DNA of 62,369 bases, filler included. It is 8 parts of 8 records of this genome, joined end to end, with 100 filler letters (N's around TTAATTAATTAA, not from the genome) between each part and the next. Parts side by side here need not be neighbours in the genome. Positions count along the whole stretch, not along the records: positions 18,996 to 24,237 come from SRR31156797_19261; 7 more parts are not named here. One strand, written 5' to 3'. The number at the start of each line of letters is the position of its first letter. Position 1 is the stretch's first letter. Under the pieces are notes generated by a model, which did no database searches, had not been told where the DNA came from, and saw only the letters and a list, made by a program, of their open reading frames with translations. Below are positions 18,416 through 22,402 of this stretch, piece after piece. A program made the translations under genes and the position numbers.

Positions 18416-18865
18416 CTATTTTCCACCAAAAAGATTAAAGTTCTTTATGTTGTACTTTGCACTATTCTGACGAAGTTTCTGTAAAGCTCTCATCTCAACC
18501 TGTCTAATTCTTTCTCTTGTGAGGTTCATGATAGCACCAACCTCTTCAAGTGTGACACCACCTTTGTCGGCAACATCAAGAGCACAGGTTTCCTTAAGTT
18601 CCCAGACTTCTTTACCTGGAAAATTGAATTTAATTGATTTTGTTTCAGGGTTTACATCAAGAAATAAATGATACTTGCATGAAACAAAGAGACAAGGTCT
18701 TTTCATCTTTAGACACTCAGCTCGGTTACTTGGTTTCTGATAGGAAGTAATGTCTATCAGGTCTTTGTAGATGGGGTCCTTTTCAAGTTCACTACGCTGT
18801 TCAACAATCACTTCTGTGTAAGGTTTAACCTTCTTTTTGCTGTTTTTCTTAGCTTTTGGAAACAT
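18416..18865 (-). CDS. Stand-alone sigma70 region-4 HTH protein with Cys/His-rich N-terminal domain
   Basis: [28 protein letters not shown] closely matches RpoD region 4.2; C-x6-C-x4-C-x2-H motif; no sigma region 2; GGAGG RBS. Confidence 0.85.
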
Positions 18866-20777: not shown

Positions 20778-21037
20778 TCAAAATCACCATTCCCTGTTAA
20801 ATATAAAAAATTATATCCGATACCCTGTCCCTTAACACACATATCATGAATGGAATTATTTTTTGTCTTCGCAACTAGTGTTTACTTGAATTTTTAGTGA
20901 TTTCCTCTTTTGCTTTTGGAACTTTTTTAGTTGTATAATTCAACTTTTTACTGTTGGTTTTTATCATTTTCTATAAAGTGTAGAATAGGTCAACAAAATA
21001 TGAGATAGCTAAAGAAAAGAGGGAGTGCAAAAGCAGA

Positions 21038-21080
21038 AAAAAGCAGATAAAAATAAATAAATTATTTTTGTCTGCTTTTT
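21038..21080 (-). terminator. Intrinsic terminator after the sfsA-SRA pair
   Basis: AAAAAGCAGATAAAAATA...TATTTTTGTCTGCTTTTT inverted repeat. Confidence 0.65.
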
Positions 21081-21115
21081 GTCGTGACTAAAATAAATAA
21101 AAATATCTAATTAGA

Positions 21116-21526
21116 TTATATATTCAAATATTCGAATGGGAAGATGATAACTTCTCTGTCATTTCCGTCATCATCCAGCTGTCTTTCGGTAAAAGGATCA
21201 GCATATCTCTTTGCTTTTCCTTTGTAAATATACTCATCTAATGTTTCAAGCTCAAAGGCATGAACAGTAAAACCATCAGCTTCTGCATTTACAAGAGATT
21301 TATTCTGCCTTTTCATCTCCTGATCTCCTCTTTTTCCGAGACCGGTAAATAAAAGTTTCTTTTCTTCTCTTTTATGTTTATATGAACAATCAGTAAACTT
21401 GGCGATAATTACTATGGAGTTTGTTTTTTTACTTTTTCTTATTCCTCCCTGATTACTACACTGAAATATCTCAGCAATCTGCTTATTTGATATAATATCT
21501 CCTGTTTTTAAGTCTTCTATTAGCAT
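21116..21526 (-). CDS. Stand-alone SRA/YDG-like domain of the type found in McrA-like SRA-HNH nucleases, with no nuclease domain
   Basis: IFQCSNQGGIRKS, SIVII, FTGLGKRGDQ, QNKSL, VHAFE, YIYKG, EQ.DDDGNDREVIIF pattern; the ORF ends right after the domain. Confidence 0.75.
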   Translation of the reverse strand: MLIEDLKTGDIISNKQIAEIFQCSNQGGIRKSKKTNSIVIIAKFTDCSYKHKREEKKLLFTGLGKRGDQEMKRQNKSLVNAEADGFTVHAFELETLDEYIYKGKAKRYADPFTERQLDDDGNDREVIIFPFEYLNI

Positions 21527-22242
21527 TATTTGCTCTCCTCTCTTTTTTCAACTATTTGGACTAAATTTTTATAATAAATATGTTCATCTTTGTATTCAAA
21601 TAAAATCGGATAAATTTCGACACCTTTTTCCTTAGCTTCATAAAATAACTCTGAAAATACAGGATCAGTTTCCCATTTGGGTTCGAATAAATCAGAATCT
21701 CTTAATACTAATAAATATACGGCAGCTCGATCTCCACTCTCTTTTAATTCCATAAGCTCTTTTAGATGTTTTTGCCCTCTTGTAGTTGGAGCATCAGGGA
21801 ACATAGCTTTTTTATCTTCAGAAAGAGAAACCCCCTTTACTTCGATCCAGATTTTTTCTCCGTCTTTTTCTACTAAATAATCAATTCGACTTTTTTTATA
21901 TTTAACTTCAGCTTTCAAACTATCTAGTTTCCCTAGAGGATTAATAGTTTCATCGTTTAATACTGCCTGAGAGATATATCTATGGAATTTAGAATTGATT
22001 AATATCCACTCACCTTCTGCATCAGCTGCAATCATGTCCCAAGCTGTTTTTCTATTTGGATTAGTTGCTCTTTGCAATAGAACTTTATTATTCTCATATA
22101 ATAGTTCTTTTAGTCTGCCGGGATCATGCACATGTACAGCTTCCACCCTGCCATCACTGAACTTGCAGTTTGCTAAATACCTGTTTGGTCTGTCTATAAA
22201 AATTGCTTCTTCATCTATTGGGATATTATAAATTTGTTTCAT
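21526..22242 (-). CDS. sfsA: DNA/RNA nuclease SfsA (OB fold plus PD-(D/E)XK)
   Basis: RPNRY, HDPGRLKELL, RKT, SRIDY, IEVKGVSL, FPDAPTTRGQKHL, DPVF. Confidence 0.95.
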   Translation of the reverse strand: MKQIYNIPIDEEAIFIDRPNRYLANCKFSDGRVEAVHVHDPGRLKELLYENNKVLLQRATNPNRKTAWDMIAADAEGEWILINSKFHRYISQAVLNDETINPLGKLDSLKAEVKYKKSRIDYLVEKDGEKIWIEVKGVSLSEDKKAMFPDAPTTRGQKHLKELMELKESGDRAAVYLLVLRDSDLFEPKWETDPVFSELFYEAKEKGVEIYPILFEYKDEHIYYKNLVQIVEKREESK

Positions 22243-22402
22243 ATATTCACTCCTAACAAAATTTGTAATGATTTCACATATGTATTATACCAAAAATAAT
22301 AAAATTATTAAATAGAACAATAAAAAAATTTGTTTTAATCAAATGTTAGGATATAATTTAAATAGAAAATACTAATAAATAGCTAGTTGAGGAGGAAATG
22401 TA

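Follow-up and report, generated by a model that had tools for sequence, protein, structure and literature searches.

The closest described relatives of the locus examined here are the SRA-HNH enzymes (TagI, PDB 6GHS; ScoA3IV/Sco5333; TbiR51I) and ScoMcrA (PDB 5ZMM/5ZMN), which join a base-flipping SRA reader to a nuclease. In TagI, Tyr55 and Tyr67 form the walls of the base pocket and the carboxylate of Asp58 bonds to the Watson-Crick edge, so that modified cytosine is preferred over thymine, and loops of the SRA domain contact the duplex and replace the flipped base (PMC6212794). Infection by T4gt is reported, as data not shown, to be partly attenuated by the SRA domain of ScoA3IV alone (PMC6765204). 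We analyzed a stretch of DNA of 62,369 nt (hereafter the window), made up of eight contigs with paired runs of 44 N at the joins, in which a 5.2-kb contig (18996-24237) carries on its minus strand sfsA and, directly behind it, a gene for a stand-alone SRA protein of 136 residues. The two genes are fused in relatives, and we give an even chance to the reading that they would encode a two-part, reader-guided nuclease, a single polypeptide in those relatives, whose reader has been retuned away from 5-methylcytosine (5mC).

A second group of comparable systems is formed by the MspJI/AspBHI/PvuRts1I-type enzymes, in which the nuclease fold is PD-(D/E)XK. They share with the window the combination of an SRA-like reader and a PD-(D/E)XK nuclease, but are single polypeptides from another PD-(D/E)XK family, lack an oligonucleotide/oligosaccharide-binding (OB) fold and read cytosine modifications. 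MspJI has SRA-type loops (PMC6212794), and clusters with RE_AspBHI_N were found in the Atlas rows only as more distant look-alikes. Stand-alone EVE proteins are similar in another respect, as these PUA-superfamily readers are small proteins in their own right, encoded beside a nuclease gene and predicted to provide specificity in trans (Bell et al. 2020, PMC7641849). Their partners are helicase-nucleases or restriction systems of type I (PMC7641849), and they differ from the window pair in reader family (EVE versus SRA_ScoMcrA) and in partners; SfsA is not named in the text of that paper. Two surveys of such readers do not mention SfsA in their main texts, and our literature search, with supplements excluded, returned no paper pairing SfsA with SRA, EVE or PUA-like readers.

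SfsA from E. coli has been described as a DNA-binding protein and predicted nuclease that combines an OB fold with a PD-(D/E)XK domain, for which the motif was named, and the same paper presents a Dehalococcoides cluster uniting an SfsA gene with COG4127 genes (PMC1189080). Within the text available from the search, neither an established SfsA substrate nor a functional study later than that paper was found. The E. coli protein stands alone, whereas the SfsA of the window has a dedicated reader partner.

Compared to the SRA-HNH enzymes, the reader in the window is homologous over its full length and the logic of a base-flipping reader joined to a nuclease is shared. The nuclease, however, is SfsA (OB and PD-(D/E)XK) and not HNH, and is placed on a separate polypeptide; where the two are fused, SfsA is N-terminal to the reader, whereas the reader comes first in SRA-HNH enzymes. 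The pocket also differs, with Asp replaced by His and Trp by Lys or Arg in most members of the clade, and the setting is chromosomal and housekeeping instead of a defence island. The joining of reader and nuclease in one unit, characteristic of type IV systems, is found as an operon in the window and as a single chain at L018 and in G109, G008 and G009. The kind of system, a PUA-type reader with a nuclease, is known, and the window pair would be a variant of it.

Identity of the two proteins and their linkage

The small protein matched Pfam SAD_SRA (PF02182) with an E value of 0.0043 and 17.2 bits, which is below the gathering cut-off of 30.7 bits, and PF26348 (SRA_ScoMcrA) was absent from the local Pfam scan of this protein. 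PF26348 is, however, precomputed on all 14 of its close relatives, and the family members P0092 (36.9 bits) and P0015 (35.9 bits) lie above the PF02182 cut-off. A profile of the clade aligned to the N-terminal domain of 28 SRA-HNH proteins over 136 columns with an hhalign probability of 100% (E 1.3e-50). Against PDB sequences the clade profile gave no match, and wider profiles gave weak matches to the SRA regions of 5ZMN (E 0.11) and TagI 6GHS (domain E far above threshold). An exhaustive representative search returned 718 relatives at E ≤ 0.001, and the partner domains among 149 representatives of the wider family (HNH-type in 60, NUDIX in 6, McrB-type AAA_5 in 4 and SfsA in 1) identify this family as one of type IV restriction readers. 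No HNH domain was found in the small protein by Pfam scan, and its chain ends at residue 136. The initial annotation had proposed an McrA-like SRA domain without HNH, and profile homology shows that the 136 residues form an entire SRA domain of the ScoMcrA/TagI type that stands alone.

The product of the upstream gene scored 219.7 bits against TIGR00230 (cut-off 126.45), with residues 1-231 of 238 covered, and matched both SfsA_N (PF17746; 78.2 bits, E 5.2e-22) and SfsA (PF03749; 148.4 bits, E 1.4e-43) in Pfam, as well as PDB entries 4DAP from E. coli (E 4.2e-31) and 4DA2/4DAV from Pyrococcus furiosus. It thus shares both domains with the E. coli and P. furiosus proteins, above the equivalog cut-off, and by these matches is a full member of the SfsA family. 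Asp121, Glu134 and Lys136 align with the motif of E. coli SfsA and were unchanged across 43 SfsA sequences, in agreement with the earlier observation that the D...E-V-K motif is kept.

As also read initially, the two open reading frames (ORFs) share one base at a TAATG, which contains the stop codon of sfsA and the start codon of the SRA gene (Table 1). Such a stop/start overlap is by itself frequent in operons; here it counts for more than chance because relatives again have this pair of genes side by side or as a fusion. We infer that sfsA and the SRA gene form one operon, probably with co-translation.

Fusion of the two genes was observed repeatedly. At the metagenome locus L018, an in-frame ORF of 372 residues runs from SfsA straight into the SRA domain with the former start methionine of the latter retained, and fused SfsA-SRA frames of 375-384 residues were found in three of 190 Fusobacteriota species genomes (G109, G009 and G008). 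The proteins P0164, P0165 and P0016 are also SfsA-SRA fusions, and the architecture SfsA_N+SfsA+PF26348 was present in 11 of the best 120 SfsA clusters at 90% identity. The SfsA D...E-x-K motif is preserved in all fusions, and the fused gene is the sole sfsA match in G008, G009 and G109. An Atlas search gave no clusters of at least 50 members with an SfsA+SRA architecture, which is not evidence of absence.

The source genome is not alone in this adjacency, as unfused neighbouring genes were found in G005, with a gap of about 550 nt, and in G099, with a gap of 70 nt and an SRA gene that has its own Shine-Dalgarno sequence. The G099 SfsA is identical to a protein named for Hypnocyclicus thermotrophus. 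The closest SfsA to that of the window is P0168 (89% identity) and the closest SRA protein is P0001 (77% identity), both of which are recorded on a single contig of 10185 nt. The linkage therefore occurs in three states, namely gap, overlap and fusion, and a functional tie between SfsA and the SRA protein is partly supported on Rosetta-stone grounds. Prediction of a complex between the two proteins gave a score of 0.00, with controls not run, which counts neither for nor against binding. In G005 the stretch between the genes (L005:983-1535) contains only a 102-residue antisense ORF without a family and may be an insertion.

The remodelled base pocket

All domain instances from the collected proteins (167) were aligned to one profile, and the 18 members of the window clade, which is one of Fusobacteriota, were compared with the 149 others. 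The window pocket reads C-S-Y-K-H-K-R ... F-T-G against the family pattern Y-x-D-x-W ... Y-T-G. At position 51 all 18 clade members, the window protein included, have His, which occurs in none of the others (Asp in 138, Asn in 11). Position 53 is Arg in the window and Lys (13), Arg (2), Trp (2) or Glu (1) in the clade, compared to Trp in 134 of the 149 others. The clade is invariant at position 47 (Cys, 18/18; mostly Ser or Gly elsewhere) and at position 60 (Phe, 18/18), where the others have Tyr (128) or Phe (17). The aromatic wall Tyr49 is retained in all 18 members, and the loops N25-Q26-G27-G28-x-R30 and Q69...R73-Q74-N75-K76 are conserved in the clade as they are in SRA-HNH enzymes.

The deviation pointed out in the initial annotation is therefore a property of the whole clade, and judged from these counts the pocket change is real and not decay. 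In an alignment with TagI, which is weak, Asp58 and Tyr67 fall on window positions 51 and 60. As the Asp that reads cytosine is replaced by an invariant His, the target of the window clade is most likely not 5mC or 5-hydroxymethylcytosine (5hmC), which strengthens the earlier caution that the ligand might differ from 5mC. Two genomes, G103 (L051:1084-1935, minus strand) and G100 (L052:1081-2160, minus strand), encode a canonical SRA-HNH protein with a Y-D-D-R-W pocket besides the variant SRA protein, which fits a different job for the variant.

In a tree of SRA domains the variant clade had a support of 98/93 and was divided into three branches, consisting of the window sequence with P0001, of G005/P0006 with all fusions (97/87), and of 27 unlinked sequences; linked forms thus occupy two of the three branches. 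The tree of the clade roughly follows genera.

Proposed mechanism and competing explanations

According to the reading that we favour, the operon would encode two halves of a reader-guided nuclease, fused into one chain in related Fusobacteriales. The SRA-type protein would bind duplex nucleic acid and flip a base into its pocket, and SfsA would be the cutting half, acting in complex with the SRA protein or on the same site. His51, flanked by Lys/Arg, would take the place of the Asp that reads the Watson-Crick edge of cytosine, and the favoured target would be a modified base of the uracil/thymine type, or a damaged base. The cellular role could be defence against phages with hypermodified DNA, or surveillance of chromosomal DNA or RNA. 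A bolder form of this reading, which we regard as unlikely, is that SfsA, an orphan nuclease whose conservation extends from E. coli to archaea, is the cutting half of a base-flipping enzyme in which Fusobacteriales have domesticated a type IV reader, by the change from Asp to His, for a base other than 5mC (a hypermodified base of the uracil/thymine type or a lesion), and that the same reader also delivers a second and unrelated hydrolase, an esterase similar to polyhydroxybutyrate (PHB) depolymerases, in sister lineages. If true, the SRA variant would be a targeting module that can be moved between enzymes acting on a single modified base. The variant clade is a candidate reader of a base that no characterized SRA domain reads, and the presence in three genomes of a sole sfsA fused to a base-flipping reader suggests that SfsA could do its work while directed to a particular base. 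The question of what SfsA cuts would be narrowed to a small set of binding and cleavage assays.

Several observations weigh against the reader-guided nuclease. The survey of 190 genomes returned 24 with an SRA match, of which 22 have an intact close copy, and in only five of these 22 is the variant SRA gene linked to sfsA, with the other 17 copies placed elsewhere. In eleven of the 22 the SRA gene comes behind a gene for a 2Fe-2S ferredoxin, and nine of these eleven have a birA-type biotin ligase gene next, often with mnmA after it. In six of the 22 the SRA stop codon abuts the start of a gene for an alpha/beta-hydrolase of 285-291 residues. Contig scans found sfsA beside the SRA gene in one of 12 genome loci and one of 10 metagenome loci. 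Of the 190 genomes, 111 encode SfsA, among them 21 of the 24 SRA-positive and 90 of the 166 SRA-negative ones, so that SfsA can do without the reader. The linkage may trace to one or two events within one phylum. That position 51 holds the base-reading residue is deduced from the weak TagI alignment together with conservation, and the SRA domain of ScoMcrA itself, according to its authors, may recognize 5mC in a way that differs from classical SRA domains (PMC6224610). Neither SfsA nor the SRA protein was assigned to a family by PADLOC (0 families), phage records and viral contigs yielded no relative of the SRA protein, and the pair is flanked by genes for a methyl-accepting chemotaxis protein (MCP), MltG and CheR, with no defence-island or mobile context. 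Of the initial proposal that reader and nuclease act in trans in defence or repair, the tie to SfsA is partly supported by the fusions and adjacencies, whereas the linkage is a minority arrangement and the defence context is missing.

Some loci from this survey were treated separately. Two of the 24 matched genomes were set aside: the copy in G102 (L050:1501-1907) is interrupted by one TGA and one TAA and is probably a pseudogene, and G022 (L049:1270-1911, minus strand) encodes a more distant SRA relative of 213 residues beside a GmrSD-type restriction gene and an insertion sequence (IS) transposase, a setting of classical defence unlike that of the variant clade. The neighbour of the SRA gene in the ferredoxin loci was at one stage read as a lipoate ligase, which was dropped as the gene is a birA-type biotin ligase. 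Examples of the SRA-hydrolase arrangement are L011:4001-5267, L042:1501-2793 and L058 (Ilyobacter polytropus pILYOP01 546443-547735). The hydrolase appears cytoplasmic and of the PHB-depolymerase/carboxylesterase kind, with a G-F-S-N-G-G elbow and 42% identity between subclades, and RefSeq labels the pair 'hypothetical protein' followed by 'phospholipase/carboxylesterase'.

The two genes could instead be functionally independent, with the variant SRA being a chromosomal nucleic-acid-binding protein with a role of its own, or one that serves other partners, which landed behind sfsA in one lineage and through loss of the stop codon gave rise to fusions that are tolerated and not selected. This explanation, which we consider rather unlikely, draws on the 17 unlinked genomes, where the SRA gene has a conserved housekeeping order (ferredoxin-SRA-birA-mnmA) or is tightly joined to the esterase-like gene, and on the many SfsA proteins without an SRA protein, and also on phylogeny: a FastTree built from 129 SfsA sequences groups all 15 fused SfsAs within a single clade of 18 leaves (support 0.82), so that fusion may have happened only once. 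The SfsAs of the window, G005 and G099 are found in a clade of seven leaves (support 0.86), which the midpoint root separates from the 18-leaf clade, with many unfused SfsAs between the two. The linkage is thus either old and was retained through deep divergence of SfsA, or the reader joined sfsA twice; the roots of both the SRA and SfsA trees are arbitrary. Independence is harder to reconcile with the wide divergence of the fusions, which span the 11 distinct 90% clusters and have SRA parts only 50-56% identical to that of the window, and with the retention in them of both the nuclease motif and the reader motifs. The status of the fused gene as the only sfsA in three genomes and the occurrence of the linkage in three states also argue against it.

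A conventional type IV restriction system split over two genes, in which the SRA protein reads 5mC/5hmC in the DNA of invading phages or plasmids and SfsA does the cutting, appears doubtful. It would suit a domain family of SRA-HNH restriction enzymes, and SfsA-type nucleases are described in a review as effectors on NACHT defence proteins (PMC13276650). Furthermore, the fusions at L018 and in G109, G008 and G009 lie directly upstream of a gene with SauUSI architecture, encoding a protein of 1011-1014 residues with a PLD nuclease, a ResIII/SF2 helicase and DUF3427. However, DUF3427 proteins of SauUSI-like size occur in 135 of the 190 Fusobacteriota genomes, a near-universal distribution that is unusual for an enzyme of the restriction type, and the unfused sfsA of G004 also has such a gene at a distance of about 1.7 kb. 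For these two reasons the adjacency may be inherited synteny, and its value as a sign of defence is weakened. The cytosine-selecting Asp is replaced in every member of the clade, and the canonical SRA-HNH proteins that coexist with the variant in G100 and G103 argue for a different job. The flanks of variant SRA genes are housekeeping genes and inheritance is vertical; the plasmid match closest to the clade is on a 962-kb replicon of Ilyobacter polytropus. Given the housekeeping surroundings and the vertical inheritance, we lean to a domesticated role, which by gene context would be at least as likely as classical restriction.

Two further observations were made near the fusions. A metallophosphoesterase beside them was considered as a partner of the PUA-calcineurin-like kind and dropped, as it is membrane-anchored, YaeI-like and without a reader domain. 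In G009, a small gene with a GxxExxY/PDDEXK_3 nuclease fold (L047:1524-1895) lies between the SfsA-SRA fusion and the SauUSI-like gene.

We find it more doubtful still that the variant SRA protein senses a free modified nucleotide or nucleoside and activates a paired hydrolase, which would be SfsA here and an esterase-like enzyme elsewhere. In its favour, two hydrolases that are unrelated, SfsA and the alpha/beta-hydrolase of six genomes, are closely coupled to this one reader, the pocket of the reader has become more basic, and binding of m6-dAMP by a PUA-like domain, with activation of an effector, has been described elsewhere (bioRxiv 10.64898/2026.01.15.699771). On the other hand, the duplex-contact loops N-Q-G-G-x-R and Q..R-Q-N-K, with roles as described for TagI (PMC6212794), are as conserved as in SRA-HNH enzymes, and SfsA has an OB fold and binds DNA (PMC1189080).

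That the small gene is a dead remnant of a truncated SRA-HNH gene is hardly credible and, as far as sequence can show, refuted: HNH fusions are frequent among domain relatives, but the stand-alone form recurs in 22 species genomes, 12 of 14 close relatives are 133-137 residues long with the same end point (P0013 and P0014, of 170-171 residues, come from short contigs), 37 columns are invariant across 15 clade members, the gene has its own Shine-Dalgarno sequence and terminator, six of six differences to the metatranscriptome contigs described below are synonymous and in third position, and nine HNH halves compared to the AT-rich downstream spacer (338 nt, 27% G+C) gave nothing significant (best 20.8 bits over 25 residues, on the wrong strand).

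Features and surroundings of the locus

The features of the gene pair, which lies entirely on the minus strand, are collected in Table 1 together with the SauUSI-like genes of the related loci. The hairpin after the SRA gene had a folding energy of -22.5 kcal/mol (fold of 21015-21115, minus strand; z = -6.68), and none of 200 shuffles was as stable, which bears out the terminator noted initially.

Table 1 Features of the sfsA-SRA gene pair (window coordinates) and SauUSI-like genes (locus coordinates).
Feature	Position	Strand	Basis
Promoter-like site (TTAATA, 16 nt, TG-TATAAT) upstream of sfsA	22284-22311	-	Consensus scan, 10/12 positions, extended -10; consensus match only
Shine-Dalgarno AGGAG, 7 nt ahead of the sfsA ATG	22250-22254	-	Sequence read directly
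sfsA, 238 residues: OB-fold N-terminal domain and PD-(D/E)XK nuclease domain	21526-22242	-	ORF; Pfam, TIGR00230 and PDB matches
Codons of the SfsA catalytic motif D121 ... E134-V-K136	21835-21882	-	Alignment with ID...EVK of E. coli SfsA
Shine-Dalgarno AGGAG for the SRA gene, within the sfsA 3' end, 8 nt before the ATG	21535-21539	-	Sequence read directly
TAATG, overlap of sfsA stop and SRA-gene start, one shared base	21524-21528	-	TAA 21528-21526, ATG 21526-21524
Stand-alone SRA (SRA_ScoMcrA-type) domain protein, 136 residues, variant-pocket clade	21116-21526	-	Homology
Codons 47-62 (C-S-Y-K-H-K-R ... L-L-F-T-G), putative remodelled base pocket	21341-21388	-	Column counts over 167 domains; weak TagI alignment
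Intrinsic-terminator-like hairpin and U-run after the SRA gene	21036-21083	-	Folding versus shuffles
SauUSI-like genes	L055:3303-6347 (-); L056:1944-4988; L054:6792-8189; L057:1395-4430 (-)

Five short contigs from an estuary metatranscriptome (run X2), 97.8-100% alike, map onto sfsA and the SRA gene and cover positions 21075-21231, 21342-21525, 21711-21993 and 22028-22243. DNA may be present in this library and the uncovered parts of the pair prove nothing; none of the five contigs bridges the junction of the two genes, and co-transcription is therefore not shown by this run. A scan of the contig with Rfam gave no match. Downstream of the pair lies the MCP gene, and upstream, in diverging orientation, an ORF of 94 residues without a family is followed by the genes for MltG (YceG) and CheR. 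No relative of the SauUSI-like protein or of the esterase was found within the 62-kb window.

Elsewhere in the window, the contig at 24338-31629 has a G+C content of 49% compared to 30-38% in the other seven contigs, and based on this deviation it may come from another organism (binning error). The contig neighbouring that of the gene pair encodes a protein of 149 residues (18416-18865, minus strand) with sigma-70 region 4 as its sole match (E 1.8e-10), a stand-alone sigma-70 region-4 protein.

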